This document shows, in pieces, positions 3,181 through 57,281 of a DNA stretch of 64,000 nt (positions are counted from its first letter, which is position 1; each line of letters opens with the position of its first letter). The stretch lies in NCBI GenBank assembly GCA_028710985.1, contig JAQTTB010000002.1:6888-70887 (forward strand). The letters run 5' to 3'. Source of the DNA: Patescibacteria group bacterium (lineage in GTDB: Bacteria > Patescibacteriota > Patescibacteriia > JAHJFT01). Under the pieces are notes generated by a model, which worked only from the letters and a program-made list of their open reading frames with translations, did no database searches and was not told the DNA's origin. The translations under genes and the position numbers were made by a program.

Positions 3181-3301
3181 ATATCAATGAATTATTGCTA
3201 AAATACCCTTATGCCCTTATATTCATTATCCCCCAACCACCACCCAACACACAACTTTTGGGTGTTGTCATCTTTTTTCAACATATAAGAACGAGTTAGC
3301 T
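3181..3301. promoter_or_regulatory. attI-like region with first cassette junction (GTTAGCT at 3295-3301) and likely cassette promoter
   Basis: GTTAGCT is the reverse complement of the R'' (AGCTAAC) of the first attC. Small inverted repeat CAACAC..GTGTTG at 3244-3270. A TATAAAT -10-like box precedes 3474. Confidence 0.4.
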
Positions 3302-3473
3302 GAAATATTCCTTTTCTTTTTTGGGCTATCGCCCAATTGTTTTAAGAAATTTTCAAATTTCTTTTTCATTAATTATAGAGGGGAATATGGAGTTTTCTTC
3401 GCTCCGCTACGAAAACGATTTATTTATAAGGGGAAAACTAGTACAATACATTTGCATTACTTGAATATAAATT

Positions 3474-4532
3474 ATGATGTCTCAAACAACGCTGTTCGGC
3501 GAAAAGTACAAAATACACCAATTTCCAAGAACTCAATATTTGGGAAGCAAGGAGAAGCTTATCAAGTGGATTCTTGAAATTGCCCCAAAAGATATTGGAA
3601 CTGTTTTTGATGCTTTTAGTGGCACATCTGTTGTTGGTTATTATTTTAAAGATGGAGGCTATAAGGTTTATAGTAATGACTTTTTAAAATGTAACTCTTT
3701 AATTTCTAAAGCTTTAATTGAAAATCAAAATATCACTCTTGATAAAAATGATATAGATATTTTGTTAGACGAAACTACAAAAGCTGATAATCTAATCGAA
3801 AAGATTTTTACTGGAGTTTTTTTTGAAAAAGACCAAGCAAAATTTTTAGATATATTTAGAGCCAATGTTGAAAAACTAGACAACGAGTATAAAAAAGCAT
3901 TGGCTTTAGCTTTAATGAATAGATCTCTGACAAGAAAAATTACATTAGGTCATTTTGCTCACTTAAAAGCAATTGAATACAGTAAAAATCCAGATAGAAT
4001 TAAAAGAAATGCAAGTTTAGCAAAACACCTAAAAGATATTTTTCAAAGTCTTGTTCATTCATATAATCATGCAATTTTTGATAATAAAAAAAGGAACAAA
4101 GTTTTTTGCGAAGATACAATTTCTTTGCTTCCAAAACTTCAAGATGTCGATTTGGCTTATTTTGATCCACCTTATGTTGGCTGTCACCCAGACTACCAAG
4201 CATTTTATCATTTTTTAGAAACTTTTGTTCAGTACTGGAAAAATAAAGAATTTGTAAATGGCACAAAGTCATATTTTCCCAAAAAAGAAAGTGGATTTGT
4301 TCAAAAAACGGATATTGAAAAATCTTTTGAAAAACTTTTTGAAAACAGCAAACATATTCCTTATTGGTTAGTTTCTTACAATAGCAAGAGTTATCCAGAG
4401 AAAGAAAGAATGATCGAACTTATCAAAAAGCACAAAAAGGTAAAAGTGTACGAAAACGAATACTCAAATCATTATGGCGGGAAAGGAAGCCGTAAAGGAA
4501 CAGTTGAATATTTATTTTATTGCTATAACTAA
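3474..4532 (+). CDS. N6-adenine DNA methyltransferase, D12 class (Dam-like)
   Basis: N-terminal 'QYLGSKEKLIKWI' and the 'FDPPYVG' DPPY motif. Confidence 0.8.
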   Translation: MMSQTTLFGEKYKIHQFPRTQYLGSKEKLIKWILEIAPKDIGTVFDAFSGTSVVGYYFKDGGYKVYSNDFLKCNSLISKALIENQNITLDKNDIDILLDETTKADNLIEKIFTGVFFEKDQAKFLDIFRANVEKLDNEYKKALALALMNRSLTRKITLGHFAHLKAIEYSKNPDRIKRNASLAKHLKDIFQSLVHSYNHAIFDNKKRNKVFCEDTISLLPKLQDVDLAYFDPPYVGCHPDYQAFYHFLETFVQYWKNKEFVNGTKSYFPKKESGFVQKTDIEKSFEKLFENSKHIPYWLVSYNSKSYPEKERMIELIKKHKKVKVYENEYSNHYGGKGSRKGTVEYLFYCYN

Positions 4533-4538
4533 AACATT

Positions 4539-5630
4539 ATGAATCATAAAATCTACCAACAACTCAAAAAACTATACGACGCAAACGACTTTGAAAAATT
4601 ACTCAAAGATTCAAATAGTTTGCTTTTTCTGAAAATTCGTTCAATCACAAGAAAAGCCTTGCTTGTTGAATTTGCAGAAAAAATTGACATCGATCCCAAT
4701 CAGGGTACCAACGATTTAATTGAACAAATCGTAAATAACCCAAAAACTGAAAAAGCTATTGATAAATTTATCAATGACAAATTCCAAAATGAAAGAAAGG
4801 AAAGAAAAATCTATGAAGATAAACTCATTTCGGAATTATATAAACTGAAAATTTTCGATTGGGGTGGTCTGTATCAAAACAATCTTGAACGAACGATAGT
4901 TGATAACTACATCAAAAAAATTAAAAACTTTGATGTTTTAATGGACAAAATTGATAACGAAATACACGAAAGTTTAAAGGGATATGTTTTGTGTTCTTGG
5001 TTTAATCACTGGACTTCAATTTTGATCGAAGATATTTTTAAGGAACACAAGAGAGTGTTACCAACGATTGGGTTAATCAAAAAAGTTGATTTTTTTGTCG
5101 ATCAAATACCTTTCGACCTTAAAGTAACTTATTTTCCGGACGGATTCATGGCTTTAAAACGAAAAGAAAAAGGACTAAAACCGGAACTTACTGAACTCAA
5201 ACAAATCGCCAAAGCAAATAAAATCAAATTTGACTCAACACAAAAAAATAAATCTCTCCTTTCTGAACTGTTAATCAGACTATCCGAGAGTCATCTTGAA
5301 CCAGCTAAAAAAGCGATAACAGAATTTCACAAAACGAGATGGAAAATAATTGAAGAAGCAATGGAAAATAAAAAAGGGCTCATTAAATGGCTTTATGAGG
5401 AACAAGGCGAAAGGCGTTTTGATTCTGCTAATCGTTTATTTTTAGTATTGATAGAAAAAAATAATCTTGAGGAAAGCTGGAAACTCAAACGCAATATTGA
5501 TTTTCTAAAAGAAAGTGTCGGGTCTTATCTTGATAAGTTTAAAATCAACGATAATTTAGAGATCAATTTTGACTGGAAAGATGAAAAATACACATCTGTT
5601 TCAGATGCCTTGTTTATAGTGAAAGAATAA
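4539..5630 (+). CDS. hypothetical protein; candidate cognate restriction endonuclease of the adjacent Dam-like MTase
   Basis: 363-aa ORF lying 6 bp downstream of the MTase in the same cassette. Possible PD-(D/E)xK-like 'VDQIPFDLKV'. No firm motif recognised. Confidence 0.35.
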   Translation: MNHKIYQQLKKLYDANDFEKLLKDSNSLLFLKIRSITRKALLVEFAEKIDIDPNQGTNDLIEQIVNNPKTEKAIDKFINDKFQNERKERKIYEDKLISELYKLKIFDWGGLYQNNLERTIVDNYIKKIKNFDVLMDKIDNEIHESLKGYVLCSWFNHWTSILIEDIFKEHKRVLPTIGLIKKVDFFVDQIPFDLKVTYFPDGFMALKRKEKGLKPELTELKQIAKANKIKFDSTQKNKSLLSELLIRLSESHLEPAKKAITEFHKTRWKIIEEAMENKKGLIKWLYEEQGERRFDSANRLFLVLIEKNNLEESWKLKRNIDFLKESVGSYLDKFKINDNLEINFDWKDEKYTSVSDALFIVKE

Positions 5631-5635
5631 AGATT

Positions 5636-6451
5636 ATGGAAGAATTTATAACTAAATGGCAAACATTGATTGGCTCCGCACTTGGTCCTTTTCTTGCGGT
5701 TATTCTTTCAGCTATAGGTTTTTGGATAAAATCAATCATAGAAGGTAAGAAAGAGCGAAAAGAATTTTTGCGACGAATAGAAATTGGAATTACTCGAAGT
5801 CTTGATGATACATTCAAAACTCGAATAAAACTCCAATATTTTGTATCAAGATTGAGAACACTAATTACAGACATCAGAAAAATAACAGACATTAAACATT
5901 TTTCTCTTGAAACCATAAACTACCCAACCATACGCGATATTTATAAAGACGTCGATTTAGCAAATTTCAAGGTTAAAAGCTACTATCTACACAACATGCT
6001 TTTATGGGCTGACGCAGGAATCAAAGAAACAAATGAAACAGTAATCAGTCTAAAAAATGACTTTGCTGAATTGCAGAGAAAAAACGAACTACATATTATC
6101 TTAATGAGACAAAACCAAACACCAAATCCCGCCCAACAAAGAGCAGAATACGCCGACAATCTTGAATCATTTGCAAACGCCATAGATGAATTTATAACAA
6201 AATTCATGAAACAGGGCGTCGAGATATTGACTCAAATTAAAATTTATAACGAACATTTACGGAAAAAACATGGTTATTGGTTTTTATGGAAATGTGAAGG
6301 AACTAAATTTAAGTATTTTCGCAATAAAACCGAACAGAAAAATTTCTCAAGAAATCTTGACTCAATGGAAAGAATTGACAAAATTATCCAGAAAGAAGTT
6401 GGTGATGCTATCAAAGACGCAGAAGCCAGAGCCTCGAAACTACAACAATAA
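5636..6451 (+). CDS. hypothetical membrane-anchored coiled-coil protein
   Basis: 271-aa ORF with an N-terminal TM segment, in the same AT-rich cassette. Confidence 0.45.
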   Translation: MEEFITKWQTLIGSALGPFLAVILSAIGFWIKSIIEGKKERKEFLRRIEIGITRSLDDTFKTRIKLQYFVSRLRTLITDIRKITDIKHFSLETINYPTIRDIYKDVDLANFKVKSYYLHNMLLWADAGIKETNETVISLKNDFAELQRKNELHIILMRQNQTPNPAQQRAEYADNLESFANAIDEFITKFMKQGVEILTQIKIYNEHLRKKHGYWFLWKCEGTKFKYFRNKTEQKNFSRNLDSMERIDKIIQKEVGDAIKDAEARASKLQQ

Positions 6452-6524
6452 GATGTTTTCGGTCGGGGCAATTCACCCCTTTAATTCCCCTCTTGCCACT
6501 CCCTCAAACGAAAAAGAAATATTG

Positions 6525-6577
6525 TGTTTTGGATTTTGGGCATTCACCCCTAACCCCTCTGCCCAAAATCCAAAACG
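6525..6577 (+). other. 17-bp-stem hairpin in the cassette-1 3' region
   Basis: TGTTTTGGATTTTGGGCA / TGCCCAAAATCCAAAACG with a 17-nt loop. ATTCACCCCT is repeated at 6469 and 6542. Confidence 0.5.
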
Positions 6578-6645
6578 GAAAAAGAAATTTGAAAATTTTT
6601 TAAAACAAGTTTTCTTATCAGAAAACAAAAGAAAAGGAATACATC

Positions 6646-6743
6646 AGCTAACAGCGTATATCTGGTTCGCGCTTGCCTAACGGCAAATGCTCACCCATAT
6701 TGCTCCCTGCGGTCGCAACATCAGATATACGCGAACGTTGTGC
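6646..6743 (+). repeat. attC-like site 1 (R'' AGCTAAC, L'' GCGTATATCTG, L' CAGATATACGC, R' GTTGTGC)
   Basis: Perfect 11-bp L''/L' inverted repeat. R'' is complementary to the cassette start at 3295. Confidence 0.6.
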
Positions 6744-7275: not shown

Positions 7276-7423
7276 GTATAACAAAGTATATTTGGCTCTG
7301 CTCCTCTCCCGCCGTTGGCGGGTTCGTCGCTCCGCCCAAATTGGCTTCCGTTCCGGCGGTGTGCTTTCGCACAATTAAACCGCCTCCACTCCAGCCAACT
7401 TCATATATACTTAAACGTTAAAT
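7276..7423 (+). repeat. attC-like site 2 (R'' GTATAAC, R' GTTAAAT)
   Basis: Imperfect palindrome TATAACAAAGTATAT...ATATATACTTAAACGTTAAAT. Centre contains TCGCTCCGCCCAAATTGG and a GTGTGCTTTCGCACA hairpin. Confidence 0.5.
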
Positions 7424-8443: not shown

Positions 8444-8538
8444 GGATTTAACAGGGCTTAAAGGGTTCGCTCGTTACACTTCGCTCTCCCAAATTTTTTG
8501 TGTGCGACAAAAAACTTCCCTTAAGCCCGATGTTATGT
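8444..8538 (+). repeat. attC-like site 3 (R'' GGATTTAAC, L'' AGGGCTTAAAGGG, L' CCCTTAAGCCC, R' GTTATGT)
   Basis: R'' is the exact reverse complement of the 9-mer GTTAAATCC that starts this cassette. L'' carries one extra A relative to L', as for an extrahelical base. Confidence 0.7.
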
Positions 8539-8564: not shown

Positions 8565-8954
8565 ATGAACATAAAAAAAACTATTTTTAAAACCATTCTT
8601 ATAAATATTCTACTAGTTACAATTACAGCTATTATCTTAAGTTCGGTGTATTTACTTTCAGCACAAAAGACCGATCCAAAAAATTACTTACATATGGAAT
8701 ATTTAGATGACGAATTGCAGAATGGTCATTACATATGTCCGCATTTATGGGACAGATACTCCTATGCATGTGGCACAGGGGACTTAATTTATACTTTTGT
8801 TGTAGGTACTGTTGGTATAATTTTCCTTGCGTACATTCCACTTGGTCCAACTGCAGAATATGCGATTTTGAATTATGCAATTCTTTTGATAATTTTTATC
8901 ACTGTTTATATTGTGTCCAAAAATAGTACAAAAACATCACATAACAGCGTATAG
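8565..8954 (+). CDS. hypothetical small membrane protein (cassette-encoded)
   Basis: 129 aa with 2-3 predicted TM segments. The stop codon lies inside the attC R''/L'' region. Confidence 0.5.
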   Translation: MNIKKTIFKTILINILLVTITAIILSSVYLLSAQKTDPKNYLHMEYLDDELQNGHYICPHLWDRYSYACGTGDLIYTFVVGTVGIIFLAYIPLGPTAEYAILNYAILLIIFITVYIVSKNSTKTSHNSV

Positions 8955-9015
8955 CAGACTACGCTTCGCTCCGTCCAAATTGCTATGCAACTTCTGCTAT
9001 ACGTAAACGTTAGGC
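8938..9015 (+). repeat. attC-like site 4 (R'' CACATAAC, L'' AGCGTATAGCAG, L' CTGCTATACGT, R' GTTAGGC)
   Basis: R'' is the exact reverse complement of GTTATGTG at 8532. Centre contains TCGCTCCGTCCAAATTGC. Confidence 0.7.
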
Positions 9016-9390: not shown

Positions 9391-9824
9391 CGCCTAACAC
9401 GGCATATCTGACTTCGCTTAAAAAACAGATAATTTTATTTACTAATATGCTACAATTATGTACGTACCCGCATGGATTTTCTTCGTCATTATGATAGCTA
9501 TGGCAGCTGCAACTATAGTAATTGATGATCACATAAAAAAGCAGAATAACAAACTAGAAGATCGAATTGATGATATCGAAAAAAGAATTAATGGTATTGA
9601 GGATTTTGTTGGTTTAGACGAAACGGCCCTAAAAGTACATAAGGAGTTGAAGATGGAGCAAGAGATGGATGAAATAACAAGGAATTCTTTTAATAAACAA
9701 GCTGGAAGGAATGTAAAATGAACATAGGATTATCTATTTTTTTAGCTCCGCCCATATTCCGCGCACACATTTTAATTAATAAATTGGGAGTGCGCGAAAC
9801 ATCGGATATGCCGAAACGTTATGT
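9391..9824 (+). repeat. attC-like site 5, enlarged to about 430 bp (R'' CGCCTAAC, L'' CGGCATATC at 9391-9411; L' GATATGCCG, R' GTTATGTG at 9804-9825)
   Basis: R'' is the exact reverse complement of GTTAGGCG at 9009. L''/L' match 9/9 although they lie 390 bp apart. The conserved centre (AGCTCCGCCCATATTCC plus a CGCGCAC..GTGCGCG hairpin) sits in the 3' half. Confidence 0.5.
9458..9721 (+). CDS. hypothetical 87-aa TM/coiled-coil protein carried on an insertion inside attC 5
   Basis: ORF lies between imperfect inverted repeats TAAAAAACAGATAAT (9419-9433) and ATTATCTATTTTTTTA (9729-9744). Confidence 0.4.
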   Translation: MYVPAWIFFVIMIAMAAATIVIDDHIKKQNNKLEDRIDDIEKRINGIEDFVGLDETALKVHKELKMEQEMDEITRNSFNKQAGRNVK

Positions 9825-39996: not shown

Positions 39997-40260
39997 AGTT
40001 TTTATTGAATTTTGGTTTATTATATAGAAACTCGATGAGAAACTCGACGACTTTTCATATCTTATTTCACCCACACAGTATAGCACATATAGGATAATTA
40101 ATCAAGAGCCAACTAAAAAGCGCCATTTCACAATGGTGCCTCTTAGTTGGCTCCGAGCGGCGCGTGAACTTAGAACCGTTATTCTGAACGGCTGGCACTC
40201 CTACGAAATGGACGCGGCCGTCAAAATGCTCCGCCATGAATCACCGTTCGATATGATAGA

Positions 40261-43200
40261 TTAAGTATTTGTAGGTTCTTTCTCGGCCGTTAAAGATTCT
40301 ACTTCCTTCCAAAAATCCTTTTCTTCTTTTTTTGGATTAGACACTTTAAGTCCTTTAATTCGCTCTACAACAAAAGCTTTATTCTCACCCTCAGGCCAGT
40401 CCTTAAGGCGGGCTAACAAATCTTTAAAATCTTTTTCATAAGCTGGATAGGTTGGTTTCACTTCATCTAAAATTCCAAGAGAAGTCTGCAAGGAGTTCTT
40501 ATCACGATCCGGTCTCAACATATCAAACAAAACATAAACGAAATCTTTAACGGGAGTCTCCTGCATAATTCCTGTTAGGCTAGATACAGTTTTTAAGGCA
40601 AAATGATGAGCTGAAGTTAATATTTTTCCTGGTTGTCTGAGCCAATCCAGAATTTCTTTACCAATCTCTCGTTTTTTCTCTTCTCCCAAAAAGTCAGACT
40701 TGATTAAAAAGTTGAAGCCGGCTTCTTGAGACGCAAGTGCATCAGATTTTATAAGATTTTTAATTTGAGTTACTGCCTGATCTTTCAAATCTACTGGATC
40801 ATTTTTGCTTAATTGAATCGGCAGATAATCATAAACTGCAATTTGTTCTCCAAAAGGGATAGACGTTACTTTAGCCAATAAAGATTTTACAACCATTTGT
40901 CGATCCGGCAGATTATCGCCCAAACTCTTTATAAAATTCAAACTATTTGCACCCTTCTGGTTAATAATATTTTTAAGCAACTCAATCTTTTTATCCTTAT
41001 CTGCTTTTTTGTATACAATTTCTAATAACACATCATCACTCATACTACGAGATAGCAATGGTTTGAAGTAGGTAGATAGAAATTTTTCGGCAGTTTCTTT
41101 TTTCCAATAATCAAATACTAAACCAATCTTAGCGGCTCCAGCGTTTTGGAAGTAACCATTAATCTGAGCTACGAGTTCATTCTGTTGTGCTTCTGGCACA
41201 TAGAAGCTAATCCAACGTAAATTATTAACTAAGCCCGTGCGATTATCCCAAGCCCCAATACTATTAAACGCCTGGATAAAATTCTTTGTAAGCTGAATTT
41301 TAGTGCCGTCATCAACAATCTTAAACTGATCCTGAAATTCACTAAATATATCCCCGCAAGTAGCGAATAAAGTTTCTTTTTCTGCGCGGTAGTCTGGACT
41401 CTCGGTAGTCTCTTTATTTATTACTTCAGTAATTTTTTGCAGAATTATATTAAACTTGTTCTTCTCTGAAATGTATTCCTTAAACTGCTTAATTATTGTA
41501 ATCTGTCCCGATAGACTATCTCGGTTGAAATTAGCGATAAATTTGTCAAACGCCTGGGGAGAAATAAAGGTCGTCTGTTCTTCAAGTGTGCCAAATAGCG
41601 ATATAATATCGAAATTTGTTGAAAAATTCTCATCAATAAACTTAACGATCTGAATTTTATCTTCATCTGCTATTAATGAAGCGTTTTGTTTTAAGTTCGT
41701 AAGAATATCTTTTAATATTGACCCCATATTTGGCTTACGAACCTCTTCTGTTCCCACGGCCAAAACATAGCGCTTAATTAAGGGTGCGCGGAACTGGACA
41801 TCTAGTTCCTGCTTCGTAATAAGGTCAGAAAAAACTAAGTTAGTTTGGAGCTGAGTGAAAAATTGCCATAGATCAGCATCTAAAACACGAGCAAGGGATT
41901 CGTAATATACTTTAGTCGAAGACGAAATCCCCAATTCGTGGAAAGCCTCTAAGTGAGTAGTAAATATTTTAAGCAATATATCTCTCTGGCTCCTATACTC
42001 ACGCAAGAGATGACGGATAAAATCAACTAATGATCCTTTATTGGTTTCCGCCGAGGCAAGTTCCTTAAATTTATCTTTGTTGCCCTCGGCCAAACTCAGT
42101 ATCATTTCCTCTGAATTGTTGAGAGATTGATAAATGGTCGGTTCTTTGAAATAGATAAACGGGCGGGCGTTAGAAACGGTAATACGGCTCGTATTTAACA
42201 TGAAGTTACGTAAATCAGCAGAATCTTTATCTTTTAGAATGTTTTCTGGTTCAAACCATTTATCCTTTAATCGATGATAAGCGGGTGTAAATTTTTGTCT
42301 AAGCACCAATACTTTTGCTAAATAAGCGATATTGTCTTTAATCCTTTGCCATACCTCCGTTTTAGAAGCTAAGACTAATGCTGCTATTAAATTATTTATA
42401 AACTGTTTAATCTCACGAGGATTGTTAGAAAAAGCATTGCTAATCACATAAACAATATCCTCTGAATCTTGACCTTGGAGTAAACTTTTTATTTCGCCGG
42501 TATCATTAATCAGTTTTTTAATATATGCGTGAAGATCGGCTTCAATAAATTCGGGCGTCCAAATTACAACATTAAATAGCTTTCTAAGATATTCTGAAGG
42601 GTCAAAATCTTCATCATCCTGACCACCATAAAAACTTTTGATTTGGCTAATAATGGCTTCTGAATCGCAGGGAACTATAAAAACAAGTCCAGCAACACCG
42701 GCCGGATCAAGGAACGTTTTGATAGCAGAAAGAATTTTTATTGCCGCATCACCCTGAACACGATCAATGTTATCAAAAACTATTACAACTTTTTTATTAA
42801 CTTTTTGAAGTATCAGTCTAAACAGAGCTTCAAATTGCTCCGGGGAGTTTAACCGTTCCTCTTTTTCAACCCTTGTTTTAATAGAGGCAAGTGGATTTAA
42901 CGAAGATAAAAACTTTTCGACCGAGCGTTCCCAAACTTTCTCCAGTAAAGGCTTAAAAAAGAGAGCTAGAACAGAGAATGAAGCTACAACGGCCGCAAAA
43001 TCTTTAATTGTTTGAATAATCAGATTATTATTTTTGAAAATCAAATTTAAAATTACCCATCCGATTACTAAAATCAGAGATAAGACTAAAAGCCAGTTTG
43101 TTTTTAACAACAACCAAACTTTTTTAAGCCATCCGGCAGAGCTTACTTGCATTTCGGCCGTCGTTATTTCGCAACTTTCCTCTGTTGATTTATAAAGAGG

Positions 43201-43536
43201 GTCAAGTATTTTTTTATCCTCGGGCGAAAGTTGTTTTTGACTAATCAGAAAGTTTACTAATTCGATCAAAAAAATTCTGCGTAACGAATCTTCCTGATAT
43301 TTCCATGCATCAAAAACAAACATCGGGCTTTGTAGATCGTGACGTATCATTTCAATGATTGTACTTTTGCCCGTACCCCACCTACTAAAAAGTCCGATGG
43401 TATGAACACAAGAATCGTTTTCTAGTATCTCTTTCATAGCTGGAGCAACGTTCTCATGATAAAAGCCAAAAATACCATCTTGACCATTACCAAGCGGGAC
43501 ATCTTTCAAAAATTTAAATTTTAGTTCTTCGGGCAT
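40261..43536 (-). CDS. KAP-family P-loop NTPase (1091 aa, TM helices inserted into the P-loop domain)
   Basis: Walker A GLFSRWGTGKST; two hydrophobic helices after about residue 130; hhhhDNID Walker B-like (VIVFDNIDR). Confidence 0.7.
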   Translation of the reverse strand: MPEELKFKFLKDVPLGNGQDGIFGFYHENVAPAMKEILENDSCVHTIGLFSRWGTGKSTIIEMIRHDLQSPMFVFDAWKYQEDSLRRIFLIELVNFLISQKQLSPEDKKILDPLYKSTEESCEITTAEMQVSSAGWLKKVWLLLKTNWLLVLSLILVIGWVILNLIFKNNNLIIQTIKDFAAVVASFSVLALFFKPLLEKVWERSVEKFLSSLNPLASIKTRVEKEERLNSPEQFEALFRLILQKVNKKVVIVFDNIDRVQGDAAIKILSAIKTFLDPAGVAGLVFIVPCDSEAIISQIKSFYGGQDDEDFDPSEYLRKLFNVVIWTPEFIEADLHAYIKKLINDTGEIKSLLQGQDSEDIVYVISNAFSNNPREIKQFINNLIAALVLASKTEVWQRIKDNIAYLAKVLVLRQKFTPAYHRLKDKWFEPENILKDKDSADLRNFMLNTSRITVSNARPFIYFKEPTIYQSLNNSEEMILSLAEGNKDKFKELASAETNKGSLVDFIRHLLREYRSQRDILLKIFTTHLEAFHELGISSSTKVYYESLARVLDADLWQFFTQLQTNLVFSDLITKQELDVQFRAPLIKRYVLAVGTEEVRKPNMGSILKDILTNLKQNASLIADEDKIQIVKFIDENFSTNFDIISLFGTLEEQTTFISPQAFDKFIANFNRDSLSGQITIIKQFKEYISEKNKFNIILQKITEVINKETTESPDYRAEKETLFATCGDIFSEFQDQFKIVDDGTKIQLTKNFIQAFNSIGAWDNRTGLVNNLRWISFYVPEAQQNELVAQINGYFQNAGAAKIGLVFDYWKKETAEKFLSTYFKPLLSRSMSDDVLLEIVYKKADKDKKIELLKNIINQKGANSLNFIKSLGDNLPDRQMVVKSLLAKVTSIPFGEQIAVYDYLPIQLSKNDPVDLKDQAVTQIKNLIKSDALASQEAGFNFLIKSDFLGEEKKREIGKEILDWLRQPGKILTSAHHFALKTVSSLTGIMQETPVKDFVYVLFDMLRPDRDKNSLQTSLGILDEVKPTYPAYEKDFKDLLARLKDWPEGENKAFVVERIKGLKVSNPKKEEKDFWKEVESLTAEKEPTNT

Positions 43537-43603
43537 ATTTTTACTTTTTCACTACTTCTTCTACTAAAGATTTTATTTTCCAGATTTGGTCTAGTTACTT
43601 TGT

Positions 43604-44773
43604 TTACCGATTACCTTTTGCTCGATTGTGTGTCTTGCAAAGCATCTGGCAGTTTTTTGCTGAAGTTGCACCTCCCTTGCTCCAGGCTGCTACATGGTCT
43701 GCGTCCATTTCGCTAAAACTCCAAATCTTACTCTTGTTAGCATCATGCCCAATGGCACAATGCGGGCAGTTTGATTCGTCTTTTTTCTCTGCCTTGACGG
43801 TTTGTGTTGTATAAACCGTCTTTTTGGTTGCTTCATCAAAAACTCGGACTTCAAGTAATTTTGTGTCAATGGAACCACCAAGAATATACTCAAAAATACC
43901 TTTGCGATTTTTAACATACGGATCAGCATAGAGCTTCTGTACCTCGGCTGATACTTTGGCTGGATTGTACGATTTTTTATGGTGTTCCTCATAAAGTCGC
44001 CCCCACTCAAGACCGCGCATCTCGCTTTCAACATTAGTAAACACACTAGAAACCCAATCGATCACGCTGTTGAAATATTTTTTTAATTCATTAATATTTT
44101 TTTCAAAACGATGACGACTCATATAATCGCCGATATTACCTTTGCTTACCCAATCCAGCGCACATTCTAAAAATTCCTGCCGGTTAGCGCTACCGGATAC
44201 ATACGCGCTCCATTTTTGAATGTTGGCGTTTTGGCTATTACTAAATTCCTCCTTGCCGAGCGTTACAAACGGCCCGGAATACACCGCATTAAGTAATTCC
44301 TGACCATTAAGTGGAACACCGGCAATATTAATTGTTTTGAACCACTCTTTTATCTCGCTTTCTTTCCCTTCGCATTCGTAAATAAGTAAAGTAGTTTTTA
44401 AAATTTTACCCTGTTTGTCTTTTGCCATACCGCTAAAATATTGCTCCATGCCGTTTTCGTCTTTGATAGCAAATTTGTCAGTTATAAACCGCCCAAGACT
44501 AGTGATGCGTTGCTGGCCGTCTAAAACCTCTAAATTGTTGTCGCTTACTTTGTTAAAATAGATCAATCCTATCGGGTACTCTTTGAGGACTGATTCAATG
44601 ACGGCCATTTCTTTTTTACCACCATCAGAAGCATAAATATAATTGCGTTGATACTCCGGTTGAATGGTCAATTTACCAGACAAACCGAACAAACCCTTAC
44701 CTTCAAGTTCGTTATAGACAAACCCATCGCAAATATCTTTAACAGTAATATTAATTTTTAAAGTTGTTTTCAT
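43604..44773 (-). CDS. DUF262 (ParB-like) plus HNH nuclease; GmrSD/BrxU-like type IV restriction-type enzyme
   Basis: DUF262 motifs IQPEYQRNY and [11 protein letters not shown]-terminal HNH: CPHC...[12 protein letters not shown]...[15 protein letters not shown]. Confidence 0.7.
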
Positions 44774-45966
44774 ATTATTTTTTTCTTATGTTTAATAAGC
44801 ACTCTTTGATAAACTTTTTCCAATAAACCATCTCGAATAATTACTCCACTTGCGTTCAAGTCATAGGTTCCTGTTTTCCCGAATTTATCTAAATACGCCT
44901 GTTTACATTCTGCGGATGTATACACTTTTGTTTTTTGTTTATATAAATCTTCATTCTCACACATTCCAACAATCTTAAACTGCTCGGGGCTATATTTATC
45001 AAGAATACTGACCGGTACTCCCATTACGCCGCTGTAATCGCTCGGGATATTTTTTACTAACGACACTTCTATCGCGTTATAATTTTCATATTTCTCAAAC
45101 GGTTTTTTCATTACGAACTTTATCACCTCTGCCTTGGTCATGAGTGGGAGTGGCTGATGACGACGCCCATGGTCAAGATTGGTAAACCAGCGAACACCCT
45201 GCACTCTAGTGACATATACTTTTTTTCCGCTTTCATTTGTTTTTATTTCACGAACCTGCTCTAAATTGGCAATGTTTTCGGGTATCTCAAAAAACATTGC
45301 ACCGGCATTAACTTTGTAATTATTACCTAACCAAACTTTATTCTCTTTAAGTAATGGGAATATTTCTTTGTAGGTAATCGCGTTCAGGTTGCCGATGATC
45401 AAAAACTTTTTATCATACTTAACAAGTTGTTTTATGTACTCGCGAAATAGACTGAACGGCGGATTAGTTACCACAATGTCAGATTGTTTCAATAGATTAA
45501 TGGACTCATCGCTGCGAAAGTCGCCGTCGTCCTTTAGCGGCATCCATTCGTTATGTTTGTTTGCCTTTAACTGCTTAGCAATGTCTTTCAAGTTGAACTC
45601 GCCATCGCCGTCTATATCGCGCACTTCGTTAATAATGAACTTGTTGGCATTTATCTTTGGACGGCCTTTTGATTTAGTAAGAGTTTTGTCATCGCCAAAT
45701 AATTCCAGTTGCGTATTGGCAACGGGCGAGGGTTTGTAACTAGTGGTGATAAGCTGCTTCAATCCAAGCTTGTTGAAATTAAGCACGAAATAGCGGAAAA
45801 AATTGCTCTCAAACGGGTCGTCGCAGTTACAATACACCACCTTGCCTCGAAATACGTTAGGATCGTATTCCAAATACGCCTCAATCTCTTTCTGAATATC
45901 GCTGTACTGAGTATAAAACTCGTCATTCTTTACTTTTTTTGCGTTTGCAAGATTTTTGTTTGCCAT
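44770..45966 (-). CDS. N6-adenine DNA methyltransferase (NPPF motif; EcoRI-methylase-like family)
   Basis: N-terminal KNDEFYTQ and motif IV VVTNPPF. Overlaps the downstream DUF262-HNH gene by 4 bp. Confidence 0.65.
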
Positions 45967-45970
45967 AAAA

Positions 45971-46675
45971 TTATTTTTCGTTATCTAGGGCAAGCTTCAG
46001 TAAAAATATCGTCTCGGCTCTGAGTTTCGACTTCACCCAAGCTTTCTGCTTCTCGTCTAGAAGTTCGCCCATACCGGAAAGAATATTGCGGTCACTGACT
46101 TTCTCCAAAGAGTTAATGCATTTTTGTAAAAAATCTTTATAAGACGTTCCTGTTCGGCCCTCTATAATTTCTTTATTCACCGGCCAGTTATTATGCAAAA
46201 AATAATACACGTCAAAAATATCACGATTAGTCTTACCGATGCGTTCATACATCGCACAAAGTTTATGAGCCAACATATCTTCCTTCACCATGACTTTCAT
46301 AGAGATGCCAAGGTATGCCTTTACTTCATACCTCGATCCAAAATTCCGGCGATTTATTTCCACCTTAATATTTTGAGCACCGATTTCCTTATCATCGTAA
46401 GAAAGTAAAAATAAAAGATTGAACCTTTTCGTTTGAGCTTCTTTAATGGTGCCGTAGGCACTTAAAATCTTTTGAATTTGTTCAAAGACATAATCTTCCT
46501 TACTCTCTTCCAACAGATCAAAATCCAAGTCTACTGAAAAACGATTGAGATCATAAAAAAGAAAGGCGGCTGTACCTCCTTTGAATCCCAAAAGCGGTCC
46601 AATAGTTGAATCAGTGTAAATGTCTTTTAAAATTCTGACGAGAATATTTTTGTGTTTTACTGTATCAAGTGACAT
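45971..46675 (-). CDS. AbiEii/DUF1814 nucleotidyltransferase toxin
   Basis: GFKGGTAAFLFYDLNRFSVDLDFD motif. Confidence 0.75.
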   Translation of the reverse strand: MSLDTVKHKNILVRILKDIYTDSTIGPLLGFKGGTAAFLFYDLNRFSVDLDFDLLEESKEDYVFEQIQKILSAYGTIKEAQTKRFNLLFLLSYDDKEIGAQNIKVEINRRNFGSRYEVKAYLGISMKVMVKEDMLAHKLCAMYERIGKTNRDIFDVYYFLHNNWPVNKEIIEGRTGTSYKDFLQKCINSLEKVSDRNILSGMGELLDEKQKAWVKSKLRAETIFLLKLALDNEK

Positions 46676-46680
46676 AGAAT

Positions 46681-47313
46681 TTATTTGGGATTATTTATTA
46701 AAGACTCGTGATATTTTTTGACCATTCTCTCCATTCGTTTATTACCTCCGTAGATAGGCAAGATTAAGTTAACTTTGTCCCAATCCAAAACTGACAAATT
46801 ATCAAAATGATAATCCGTGTTTAAATAAACAACATCTAAAAATGCTCTTTCAGTCGAAGCAATACTGTAATTATCTTTTATTTCGATGCCGGCATTGTTA
46901 GTGAGAATTTCGTCTTTAATCCTTTTGAAAGCAACTACTTGCCCATCGCATTCAATTTCTTTATTTTGGTACGAAGCAACAAAAATTTTAGAGTAGTGTT
47001 GAAAGGTTACACCGGCCGATCCGAGGACGGTTTCAAAACTGACGTAAGAAGGCGTAAATATTTTGGTAGCTAACTCATATTTGTCGTAATTTTTGTCCTT
47101 GGCATAAAGACCGCGACGTATATGGTAAAGATTATTGTGTTTAGTATAGTAATTAACCCTTGAACCAGCGGTAAGCTTGTCAATTCCTCCCCAAAGCAAA
47201 ATAAGGTCTTTGAAAGAAAAAACCGTTTTGCTTGATCTCAATATTTCGTTTAAAAAGCCTTTTTCCATATGTTTGAAGTTAAATATAAGACCCTGCCTTA
47301 TGTTCAACTCCAA
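46681..47313 (-). CDS. AbiEi-like antitoxin / transcriptional regulator
   Basis: Directly upstream of AbiEii; N-terminal wHTH-like region with IRRGLYA; 210 aa. Confidence 0.65.
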   Translation of the reverse strand: MELNIRQGLIFNFKHMEKGFLNEILRSSKTVFSFKDLILLWGGIDKLTAGSRVNYYTKHNNLYHIRRGLYAKDKNYDKYELATKIFTPSYVSFETVLGSAGVTFQHYSKIFVASYQNKEIECDGQVVAFKRIKDEILTNNAGIEIKDNYSIASTERAFLDVVYLNTDYHFDNLSVLDWDKVNLILPIYGGNKRMERMVKKYHESLINNPK

Positions 47314-47367
47314 TTATATGATATAATCAATAAGAGTGCAAGAGCTAAGGGGATAAACAAAACAACT

Positions 47368-47445
47368 GATTAATCACTGTCTTATAATATAATAAGACAT
47401 GTAATTTTTTAGAAATAAAGAAGCCTTATTATATTATAAGGCTTG
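47368..47445. promoter_or_regulatory. two related palindromes in the divergent promoter region (candidate AbiEi operators)
   Basis: GTCTTATAATATAATAAGAC and AAGCCTTATTATATTATAAGGCTT sharing the core CTTATwATATwATAAG. Confidence 0.4.
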
Positions 47446-47453
47446 AATAACTT

Positions 47454-48398
47454 ATGAGAAAACAGCTTAAAGCAATAATTAATAAGCTAAACAAACGGCC
47501 AATATCTTCTTTGACCGGCGATGAATTTGATGTGTATTTTGAACACCGAATGGATAACTTGATATGTGATAAAAAGGTCCTCACTAAAAATGAGCTTGTC
47601 TATCTCCTTTCCGAAACCGGTCCCGGTAATCGACGCATTGATCCGCGATTAGTATTAAAGCTTGTCGATCAAAACATTCTAGTTTCTTCCATACTTGGGG
47701 CTTTACCTGAAATGACAAAATTAAAAGGCCAAAAAGAAAAAGTGGATAAATATATACTCGACCATAAAAGCTCTAAGGAAACTAAACAATCAATTATTAA
47801 ATTGATTGGGAGTTATCTAAAAAATGTAAAAATGATTTCAGATGATCCCTTTATAATCGAAGCCACATTTAAGAATATGCCAATCTCCTGCCTGATAAAA
47901 AACGGTGGCTGGATATTTCCGGATTCAGAATTATTTTCTTTTCTAAGCGCAGTTCAAAAACAAAAAAGGTTTCCAATAGTAATTGCTAAAAAGATATCGG
48001 GTATTCTTTTTCCGGTATTTAAGGGATTGTCGATTTTAGGTTTAAATCTATACAAAACCCTTTTGCCAGAGGAGGGAGAAAAGTTAATAACTAGCTCTAT
48101 TTATAAACCAAAAGAGAGTTTTCTATCAGAGCTGAAGTATAACGGTCAGTTTCAATTTTTAACAAGAGAATACGTTGAAAATATCCAAGACGAATATTGG
48201 AATGGCGATCCGCTAAAAAACTTCTTTGAGAATGTCTTGCTCGGAAATATATCTACTTATTACGAGAATTTCTCAAATTTGAAAATAAATATTACCGATA
48301 ATTTTGCCGATACTGTATCTCAGTTCAGAAAAAACAAAACGACAAAAAATTTACTTGAAATGTATAAAACGCAAGAAAAGATTATTAGCGCTAAATAA
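47454..48398 (+). CDS. hypothetical protein (314 aa, AT-rich, defence-island context)
   Basis: ORF only; no recognised motif. Confidence 0.45.
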   Translation: MRKQLKAIINKLNKRPISSLTGDEFDVYFEHRMDNLICDKKVLTKNELVYLLSETGPGNRRIDPRLVLKLVDQNILVSSILGALPEMTKLKGQKEKVDKYILDHKSSKETKQSIIKLIGSYLKNVKMISDDPFIIEATFKNMPISCLIKNGGWIFPDSELFSFLSAVQKQKRFPIVIAKKISGILFPVFKGLSILGLNLYKTLLPEEGEKLITSSIYKPKESFLSELKYNGQFQFLTREYVENIQDEYWNGDPLKNFFENVLLGNISTYYENFSNLKINITDNFADTVSQFRKNKTTKNLLEMYKTQEKIISAK

Positions 48399-48721
48399 TT
48401 TCCGTCAACTTCTTGTCAGCTTTTGTCAGAATAATTTATCCACAGATGGACCTATTGACCGCGGCCTTTCCGGTCCGCTATTATAAAAGCATAAGAGATA
48501 GGAGTTTGCCTGACGGCGTTCCGATTTATCGGAACTAAGTGTGACGGGGCTACGACTTCTGTCATCAAGCACTACGTGTTTTTTTGCTTGATGATGTGAA
48601 GTGGTAGCCCTTTTTTGTTTTTCAATTAAAAGTTAATTCCCTCTGAGGTTAAGTGCCTCGATAAGAAAGCTTAGTATTTGAATAGAAAGATAAAGGCTAG
48701 TCCCAGCGGGGCCAGCCTTTT

Positions 48722-48922
48722 ATGTTGCCCCAAGAAGCTATACAAGAATTTAAAGAATTATACGAGAAACGCTACGGCGTAAAACTCTCCGATGAGGAGG
48801 CTTCTTTGCGCGCCAACAATCTTTTTAAACTCTACAAAATAACTTATATGGGTGAGCCATCTATTGATGACTTCCAAGAAAAAGTAGTGAAAAGCCATGA
48901 CTTACAACCAAACCACAATTAG
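48722..48922 (+). CDS. small hypothetical protein (66 aa)
   Basis: ORF only. Confidence 0.25.
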   Translation: MLPQEAIQEFKELYEKRYGVKLSDEEASLRANNLFKLYKITYMGEPSIDDFQEKVVKSHDLQPNHN

Positions 48923-49208
48923 CGAAATCCAATTCTATCCGGTTAAACCCAAGGACGGTCTCCTCGGGTTTGTTTCGTTTGTCCTGGACGGCAAATTCTG
49001 GATGGGATCGGTGGCCGTGTTCAGCCGGCCGGCCGGCCGATACCGGCTGGTTTATCCCACACGCAAAGTGGGAGGCCAGAACATAAACATTTTTCATCCG
49101 ATTACCCATGAAGCCGGCCAGGAGGTCGAAATGGCCATTAATGAAAAAGTAGCTGAATTACTTAGTGAAAATTATGAATCAGACGAACCAACCCAAAACA
49201 CGTGGTAA
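48897..49208 (+). CDS. SpoVG-family protein
   Basis: IQFYPVKPKDGLLGFVSFVLDGKFWMGSVAVF...INIFHPITHEAGQEV resembles SpoVG. Confidence 0.55.
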   Translation: MTYNQTTISEIQFYPVKPKDGLLGFVSFVLDGKFWMGSVAVFSRPAGRYRLVYPTRKVGGQNINIFHPITHEAGQEVEMAINEKVAELLSENYESDEPTQNTW

Positions 49209-56736: not shown

Positions 56737-56824
56737 TGGCGGTGGGAGTGGGATTCGAACCCACGATACCTTGCGGTATACACGCTTTCCAAGCGTGCGC
56801 CATCGGCCACTCGGCCATCCCACC
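56737..56824 (-). tRNA. tRNA-Ser (GGA), type II with long variable arm, CCA encoded
   Basis: Acceptor GGTGGGA/TCCCACC, anticodon stem CACGC/GCGTG with loop TTGGAAA, variable arm TATACC-GCAA-GGTATC, T arm GTGGG-TTCGAAT-CCCAC. Confidence 0.85.
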
Positions 56825-57164: not shown

Positions 57165-57281
57165 AAGGGACGGCGGGAATCGAACCCGCAACCTTTCCGG
57201 TTCCGGAATCGTGCTCAAGATAGGAGGTCAGTCCTTAGTCGACTCCGGTCGTTAACGCTCTGCCAGTTGAGCTACGTCCCT
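57165..57281 (-). tRNA. tRNA-like gene (117 nt) with canonical acceptor, D and T arms but a roughly 40-45-nt insertion in the anticodon/variable region; possible intron-containing tRNA or tRNA-derived pseudogene
   Basis: 5' AGGGACG-T-A-GCTC-AACTGGCA-GAGC-G ... 65-nt region with a 9-bp internal stem (CCGGAGTCG/CGATTCCGG) ... GCGGG-TTCGATT-CCCGC-CGTCCCT-T. A terminator hairpin lies downstream at about 57096-57125. Confidence 0.4.

Follow-up and report, generated by a model that had tools for sequence, protein, structure and literature searches.

A three-gene integron-type cassette of a Patescibacteria bacterium with a probable Type II restriction-modification pair and an exchangeable payload gene

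A 64,000-nt stretch of contig JAQTTB010000002.1 from a Patescibacteria group bacterium (called here the window, at its full length) carries a 3,442-bp segment with three co-directional open reading frames (ORFs). It lies next to the gene of a tyrosine recombinase and is bounded by an attI-type junction and an attC site. The first gene encodes a methylase of the D12 class, the second a 363-aa protein of an unannotated family and the third a 271-aa membrane protein. We estimate at about 0.78 the probability that this segment (positions 3296-6737, cassette 1) is a mobile integron cassette working as a small defence island, in which a Type IIP restriction-modification (R-M) pair is combined with an unrelated payload. 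Considered by itself, the assignment of cassette 1 to the Type II R-M cassettes of functional type is highly probable.

The proposed mechanism is as follows. The methylase would N6-methylate adenines within a short palindrome, for which CATATG is predicted, and the 363-aa protein, translated just behind it, would cut the same site if unmethylated, using a metal-dependent E/D/DxK active site. The order of the two genes, methylase first and nuclease second, would let protection precede restriction. Gene 3 sits in a payload slot flanked on one side by the nuclease gene and on the other by a conserved 3' region with the attC. The whole unit would move by attC x attI recombination through an IntI-related recombinase devoid of the additional domain. 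The pair might also stabilize the array by addiction, as had been proposed in an earlier reading of this stretch made from the sequence alone (the sequence-only reading).

Extent, boundaries and mobility of cassette 1

The GC content of cassette 1 is 0.317 against 0.471 for the remainder of the window. Its genes follow each other with gaps of 6 nt (methylase and 363-aa genes) and 5 nt (363-aa and 271-aa genes), which leave no room for an attC between them (Table 1). Its ends were fixed by comparison with other contigs (comparison contigs and loci are designated L005, L013, L024, L027, etc.). The similarity with L005 begins exactly at TTAGCTG, spans both R-M genes and runs into an identical attC. 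The attI-side DNA of the two contigs is unrelated except for GAACGAG|TT, the attI of L005 reading GAAACGAG|TTATCC. The 5' end and the attC of cassette 1 recur in L005, L013, L024 and L027, with identical attC arms in L005, L013 and L027. The sequence-only reading had located the GTTAGCT junction, the three ORFs, the DPPY and FDLKV motifs and attC1 where they are indeed found. Its proposal of a single three-gene first cassette agrees with the short gaps and with ends that match those in four other contigs. The integrase-proximal position which it stressed is correct for the window but is not a fixed property, since the R-M unit lies after a 155-bp ORF-less element in L005 and is the third cassette in L013. 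The proximal position is therefore incidental. As judged from these comparisons, positions 3296-6737 constitute a mobile integron cassette. Its close relatives all come from Patescibacteria-type metagenome contigs.

Table 1. Coordinates of cassette 1, its components and its neighbouring recombinase gene in the window, and of sister cassettes with the same ends
Feature	Position	Strand	Details
Tyrosine recombinase, 270 aa	2368-3180	-	Pfam Phage_integrase, 1.7e-43
attI-type junction GAACGAG|TTAGCT	3289-3301	+	crossover G3295/T3296; GTTAGCT at 3295-3301
Cassette leader, 178 nt	3296-3473	+	kept between cassette copies (alignment with L005)
M, D12-class N6-adenine DNA methyltransferase, alpha-type motif order, 352 aa	3474-4532	+	PF02086
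R, candidate nuclease, 363 aa, unannotated family	4539-5630	+	methylase linkage; candidate PD-(D/E)XK site
Single-pass membrane, all-helical protein, 271 aa	5636-6451	+	independent payload gene, candidate defence or accessory factor
3' untranslated part	6452-6645	+	common to L005
attC1	6646-6743	+	R'' AGCTAAC 6646-6652; L'' GCGTATATCTGG 6654-6665; L' CAGATATACGC 6722-6732; R' GTTGTGC 6737-6743
Sister cassette of L013 (slot content under Details)	L013 2759-6870		minimal complete CBASS: cyclase (1.9e-91) and 2TM effector (3e-20)
Sister cassette of L024 (slot content under Details)	L024 43-4992		PifA-like KAP NTPase (4.8e-89)
Sister cassette of L005 (slot content under Details)			two small proteins, the first weakly PycTM-like

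The attC sites were searched with a structural scan (pattern xxxxAAC, L'', L', GTTxxxx), whole-window shuffles serving as null. Within the first 9 kb past the recombinase gene, sites were found at 6646-6743, 7276-7423, 8446-8538 and 8939-9015, every one of them on the + strand; shuffled windows yield one or two matches, both strands together. The bottom strands of the attCs of the window fold with R and L boxes paired around a short unpaired spacer. In attC1, where crossover falls between G6737 and T6738, this spacer is of 3 nt and the L-box complementarity is 10/10. The z-score of the fold is only -1.6, and the support for attC1 therefore comes from its architecture and not from its energy. 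Moreover, the opening bases of cassette 1, G|TTAGCT, exactly complement its own R'' box AGCTAAC (7/7), a rule also observed for cassettes 3, 4 and 5 (ATTTAAC/GTTAAAT, ACATAAC/GTTATGT and GCCTAAC/GTTAGGC). A generic inverted-repeat search of the window did not recover the attCs, and Rfam gave no match in cassette 1.

A further attC-like match on the + strand (4495-4624) spans the methylase-nuclease junction and was rejected as a chance match: its R boxes are weak (4/7), it lies in coding sequence and such matches arise at the shuffle rate. It is the sole match between the genes, so that the cryptic attC which could have split the cassette was not found. The methylase-nuclease junction is also conserved in loci outside integrons.

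The form of cassette 1 departs from that of a classical cassette, which has one promoterless ORF and measures ~0.5-1 kb, as it holds three ORFs in 3,442 bp behind a conserved 178-nt leader. Near its start, this leader carries a terminator-like hairpin (3321-3336, GGGCTATCGCCC) with a T-rich tract after it. Cassette 1, which would be the best expressed according to the sequence-only reading, may thus have an expression of its own, independent of the integron promoter. A promoter scan of cassette 1 gave no more promoter-like matches than shuffled sequences. The 3' untranslated region includes a perfect 17-bp inverted repeat (6526-6542 and 6560-6576, GTTTTGGATTTTGGGCA and TGCCCAAAATCCAAAAC). L005 exhibits a shorter version of this stem (GTTTTGGGC...GCCCAAAAC) followed, as in the window, by a AAACGGAAAAAGAAATTTG tract. 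This repeat could be a terminator or a recombination scar.

Two other features of these arrays were observed. A fifth attC-like site of the window (9391-9823) has its arms, GCCTAAC..CGGCATATCTGA and TCGGATATGCCG..GTTATGT, 433 nt apart with an 87-aa ORF (9458-9721) between them, while the other attCs measure only 77-148 nt. The ORF-less element of ~155 bp in L005 has no copy in the window. It is present at each of the three cassette junctions of that contig (6584-6737, 9933-10088 and 11398-11550), starts with G|TTATCCAAAATG and ends with GGCCGA|TT. This element may represent an empty cassette that is repeated, or else a small mobile element targeting attC/attI junctions.

The recombinase is 41% identical to IntI1 (a reference rebuilt from two reading frames of L093; L094 is a deletion variant of IntI1) and has its C-terminal RSPL motif. 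It passes the NCBIfam profile NF040815 (site-specific tyrosine recombinase/integron integrase) with a score of 232.3 for a cut-off of 220. Against its assignment to the integron integrases, its score for TIGR02249 is below the cut-off (228.7 vs 265) and the alignment with IntI1 shows that ~42 residues of the IntI-specific additional domain are missing. This domain is a defining feature of integron integrases (Messier & Roy 2001, as used by IntegronFinder; PMC9668308). The recombinase of L005 (57% identical at the gene level) likewise carries no additional domain, and related genes are present in L013 and L134. Since the additional domain is missing but the sites and the behaviour of the cassettes are of integron type, the array is called here integron-type and its enzyme is not considered a canonical IntI. 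IntegronFinder-type tools would probably not recognize complete integrons in such arrays and would list them as clusters of orphan attCs. Between glyA and the recombinase gene, a 127-aa ORF (1916-2299, - strand) shows repeated DQRFNxVDxRF heptad-like units typical of a coiled coil and only weak Pfam coiled-coil matches.

The methylase, the 363-aa protein and their predicted site

The methylase matches PF02086 (1.5e-20, 74.4 bits for a cut-off of 22), with motif I (FDAFSGTS) at residue 45 and DPPY at residue 231. Among its best matches is the PADLOC Type II methyltransferase model PDLC03385 (2.4e-58). Further matches are to the second half of a two-domain PADLOC model of 643 positions and to the phage DNA methyltransferase PHROG 27806 (3.2e-63). 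The match with M.DpnII (2dpm) is weak (E = 0.042). The methylase had been described as Dam-like, which holds for its D12 class. Membership of the Dam family itself was rejected, the score for TIGR00571 being 19.6 for a cut-off of 114.85. The possibility that it groups with orphan methylases was addressed with five homologues, picked solely for their long contigs (L176, L177 and L178 among them). The nuclease gene is intact in two of these loci, frameshifted in two chromosomal copies and absent from one locus. With a nuclease gene or its remnants in four cases out of five, the clade is partner-linked and not orphan.

The 363-aa protein belongs to a large family of 2,204 homologues (E <= 0.001), none of which carries a Pfam domain or an informative name. 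The profile search gave 606 cluster representatives. In GTDB representative genomes, 174 relatives are distributed among bacterial and archaeal phyla, including Patescibacteria, DPANN, Methanosarcinales, Chloroflexota, Bacteroidota, Planctomycetota, cyanobacteria and others. In all 82 non-redundant loci analysed, a same-strand ORF ends at or just before the start of the gene of this family, and the two genes overlap in some relatives. This upstream ORF is a homologue of the D12 methylase of the window in 27 loci (49-99% identity). In the other 55 it encodes 340-570 aa, and 36 of the 39 scanned match PF01555 (N6_N4), a methylase class unrelated to D12. One chromosomal copy of the pair has an extra HTH_3 controller-like gene upstream. 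Such strict adjacency to two unrelated methylase classes is the behaviour expected of a restriction endonuclease. Decay of the genes points in the same direction: the frameshifted nuclease genes found beside intact methylase genes follow the pattern expected for a toxic nuclease. In L027, a cassette 97.9% identical to cassette 1, the nuclease gene carries a 1-nt deletion in an A-rich run (window equivalent ~5161), which might instead be an assembly error.

Conservation was analysed in an alignment of 64 sequences with identities down to 22%. Residues D184, F185, P191, D193, Y286, Q289 and R299 do not vary, and conservation reaches 90% or more for E164 and K195. As judged from this alignment, the FDLKV motif (residues 192-196), already singled out in the sequence-only reading as a possible PD-(D/E)xK motif, is the most conserved spot of the family. 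In the AlphaFold (AF2) model (pLDDT 93.9, pTM 0.89), E164 closes a long helix (131-168), D184 opens a short strand (185-187) and D193-x-K195 lies within strand 190-198. This strand is followed by a helix and later by strand 299-306. This helix-beta-beta-beta-helix...beta order of the elements around E164, D184 and D193-x-K195 is that of the PD-(D/E)XK core, the candidate fold of the protein.

Several results weigh against this assignment. Foldseek comparison of the model with the PDB gave a best E of 0.39, with the restriction enzymes BstEII (E = 2) and 3ndh (E = 4.6) further down the ranking, and comparison with BFVD gave no match. The protein had no match in Pfam, NCBIfam, PADLOC or PHROGs, nor with PDB sequences using phmmer and profile searches. 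A tblastn search against plasmids and phages also gave no match. Restriction enzymes are notoriously divergent, and the missing fold match therefore affects membership of a known nuclease family more than the capacity to restrict. Of the earlier proposal of a PD-(D/E)xK restriction endonuclease, the methylase linkage, the invariant D..DxK residues and the decay pattern support the endonuclease part, while the fold found no counterpart in structure and profile searches. The 363-aa protein is very probably a restriction enzyme, by its genomic context rather than by its fold, and nuclease activity would be its expected property.

The recognition site was predicted from hexamer frequencies in the flanks of the methylase-nuclease pair (82 loci, 391 kb, R-M genes left out), using a maximal-order Markov expectation. 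CATATG is the most depleted palindrome and has the lowest ratio among all hexamers with sufficient expected counts (observed/expected 0.39, 22 vs 55.8; bootstrap 95% interval over loci 0.24-0.55). The ratio is similar in the flanks of loci with a D12 partner (0.41) and with an N6_N4 partner (0.38), CATATG ranking second of 64 palindromes in both, and reaches 0.20 inside the methylase and nuclease genes (first of 64). In control loci, taken around members of the 271-aa family, it is 0.97 (0.78-1.18) and the rank 38 of 64. CATATG, which is the NdeI site, is therefore the predicted site on the grounds of a lowest ratio around the systems and a value near 1 in the controls. We give this assignment slightly less than even odds. 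It is weakened by the control loci, which are not phylogenetically matched for the non-Patescibacteria loci, and by CTCGAG, whose depletion equals that of CATATG, though solely in the higher-GC subset. Moreover, CATATG is not depleted in the whole window (10 observed, 10.6 expected). This last result fits a recently captured mobile cassette, yet it is also a caveat. Within cassette 1 itself CATATG is absent. A GATC-like site, which had been suggested initially, was rejected: the ratio for GATC is 0.66-0.77 in the system loci, 0.75 in the controls and 0.73 in the window, so that its depletion is unspecific, and the specific signal is that of CATATG.

The payload slot and alternative explanations

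The 271-aa protein has one N-terminal hydrophobic, transmembrane helix (residues ~10-32) and an all-helical model (pLDDT 85.9). Foldseek gave generic coiled-coil matches only and no fold match, and Pfam, NCBIfam and PHROG searches gave no match. Conserved polar residues of the family include E43, R46, E49, a KSYYLHN motif and N133. It had been described as a transmembrane/coiled-coil protein accompanying an R-M module. The membrane helix and the helical nature are supported. The gene does not count as a member of the module, since it is exchanged in sister cassettes. Between the same cassette ends, L013 carries a minimal complete cyclic oligonucleotide-based antiphage signalling system (CBASS) with a two-transmembrane (2TM) effector, L024 a PifA-like NTPase and L005 two small proteins (Table 1). 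In other loci, the gene directly following the nuclease gene encodes a PifA-like protein (L015), Old/AriA-like ATPase-TOPRIM proteins (L020 and L022) or PDC-S46 (L025, 4.5e-279). The methylase-nuclease pair occurs without a 271-aa gene in 80 of the 82 loci. The chassis is itself mosaic: the methylase of L024 is 92% identical to that of the window and its nuclease 60%, which indicates recombination inside the R-M pair.

The 186 homologues of the 271-aa protein have no constant neighbour. Several are embedded in or adjacent to R-M and abortive-infection genes: HsdS-X-HsdR (L131, X being the 271-aa relative), HEPN_AbiU2-X-HsdR (L115), an EcoRI-like methylase followed by X (L125), N6_N4 methylases (L098, L107 and L120), helix-turn-helix (HTH)-X-methylase-R.HinfI (L010-12), Dcm...Vsr-AbiU2-X (L007-9) and DUF4238-X (L104). 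Some relatives follow Rhs/CdiI toxin modules. A defensive role is made less certain by the relatives adjoining housekeeping genes and by the absence of a PADLOC match for the protein itself; PADLOC scans of the unannotated neighbours of its relatives were mostly empty. As far as such comparisons of loci can tell, the 271-aa gene does not belong to the R-M system but is a swappable payload. Its product most probably acts independently, in defence or abortive infection, a role suggested only by its position. On the reading that we favour, the R-M pair together with its attC serves as the carrier of a second defence gene, which can be exchanged.

In L134 (2015-4970), a relative with 49% identity to the 271-aa protein was also observed, with an attC-like site just after it. 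It is preceded by a 311-aa protein weakly matching the protease part of the PADLOC model RT-Protease_XI. This pair is seemingly the first cassette after a short-type recombinase gene, 44.6% identical to that of the window.

Three other explanations were considered, which differ on the second gene, on the third and on the whole segment. If the 363-aa protein were a DNA-binding regulator or another methylase-associated factor, the cassette would carry an orphan methylase and an accessory gene. This agrees with a protein that matches no known nuclease family or fold and whose model is more than half helical, with a 170-residue helical N-terminal part. We consider it unlikely, as adjacency to methylases of two unrelated classes at 82 loci out of 82 is the signature of a restriction partner. 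The invariant D...DxK and the conserved Glu lie on the expected secondary structure elements, frameshifted copies stand beside intact methylase genes and one hexamer palindrome is specifically avoided around the loci. It is doubtful, though less so, that the three genes constitute one system in which the 271-aa protein is coupled to the R-M pair, for instance as a PrrC-like abortive effector acting upon inhibition of restriction. The same-strand gene 5 nt downstream, with no attC between, and the relatives inside other R-M operons (L131, L010-12, L125) would suit such a coupling. However, sister cassettes with the same ends carry, at its position, self-sufficient systems such as CBASS or a PifA-like NTPase. 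No partner is constant among its relatives, some of which lie after Rhs/CdiI modules or housekeeping genes, and the pair nearly always does without it. PrrC-like functional coupling of the 271-aa protein to restriction is thus possible but not favoured.

Finally, the segment might be a genomic island beside a Xer-type recombinase and not an integron cassette. The enzyme without the IntI additional domain and under the TIGR02249 cut-off could be read in this way, as could three genes with their own leader, unlike classical cassettes. This is very improbable in view of a chain of attC sites in a single orientation with R''/R' complementarity, a unit that keeps exact G|TT boundaries while its position changes from array to array and a recombinase that passes NF040815 and resembles IntI1. 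The reading retained is that of a mobile integron cassette with a Type IIP R-M pair and an unrelated payload.

Elsewhere in the window, a 117-nt Rfam tRNA match (47 bits) at 57165-57281 (- strand), near a tRNA-Ser at 56737-56824, is not called by ARAGORN and may correspond to an intron-containing or otherwise unusual tRNA. A second low-GC block (~40000-49000, 0.34-0.40 vs ~0.50) may be another island of foreign DNA.

Relation to known systems

Several elements are new here: a widespread, unannotated family of very probable restriction enzymes, for which catalytic residues and a site are predicted; a composite cassette whose second defence module can be exchanged; an atypical recombinase in a Patescibacteria host setting; and a family of membrane proteins associated with R-M systems. 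With the first, over 2,000 'hypothetical proteins' of bacteria and archaea receive a probable function. A testable prediction also follows: the enzyme would be of Type IIP, specific for CATATG and dependent on E164, D184, D193 and K195 for catalysis. The second means that one cassette can hold two defence systems, and that the swappable slot offers a 'guilt by position' route to new defence genes, of which the 271-aa family is the first candidate. A fuller picture, which we propose tentatively and rate well below even odds, would be that of a composite defence cassette. Its Type II R-M chassis would have a nuclease devoid of detectable structural relatives, probably cutting CATATG, and would carry an exchangeable second defence module. 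The integrons concerned would probably be those of Patescibacteria, and the 271-aa family would perhaps be an R-M-linked abortive-infection or second-line factor. The literature searched gave no description of a conserved R-M chassis combined with a variable payload in one cassette, and nothing usable on integrons in Patescibacteria or on the NdeI gene and protein.

Among D12 methylases, that of cassette 1 shares with the Dam/DpnIIA/EcoRV type the PF02086 domain, motif I followed by DPPY and the weak match with M.DpnII. However, it is ~70 residues longer, best matches Type II methyltransferase models and shows no GATC-specific signal. With NdeI-type Type IIP systems the pair would share the CATATG site, which is predicted from hexamer avoidance. 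Its methylase is an adenine methylase, and the site contains adenines. Compared to Type II nucleases in general, the 363-aa protein matches no PADLOC Type II nuclease model. For the third gene, a parallel is found in PrrC, an accessory abortive-infection gene of the Type I operon EcoprrI. Several relatives of the 271-aa protein resemble such embedded genes by their location, some being flanked by hsdS and hsdR and others by a controller HTH gene and a Type II methylase. The 271-aa protein differs by its membrane anchor and has no sequence or fold similarity to these proteins.

R-M systems, including XbaI, have been observed in integron cassettes (PMC10661359), and methylation and restriction proteins represent 8.3% of the functionally annotated proteins of archaeal cassettes (PMC9668308). 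Cassettes sampled by metagenomics show an enrichment in R-M functions (PMC10661359, PMC9668308). As R-M genes in integron cassettes are already known, an R-M cassette as such is ordinary. Cassette 1 resembles these examples in having a methylase and nuclease pair, bounded by attC, within a cassette array. It differs in its third, swappable gene, its unannotated nuclease family and its recombinase without the additional domain. Chromosomal and mobile integrons have also been presented as stores ('biobanks') of anti-phage systems, with complete systems packaged as cassettes (PMC12614218). The cassettes described here are similar in that defence systems travel as cassettes, the sister cassettes carrying CBASS or PifA-like genes. 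They are distinct in having two systems per cassette, with a conserved R-M chassis composed of the 5' end, the methylase, the 3' region and the attC, to which a variable payload is added.

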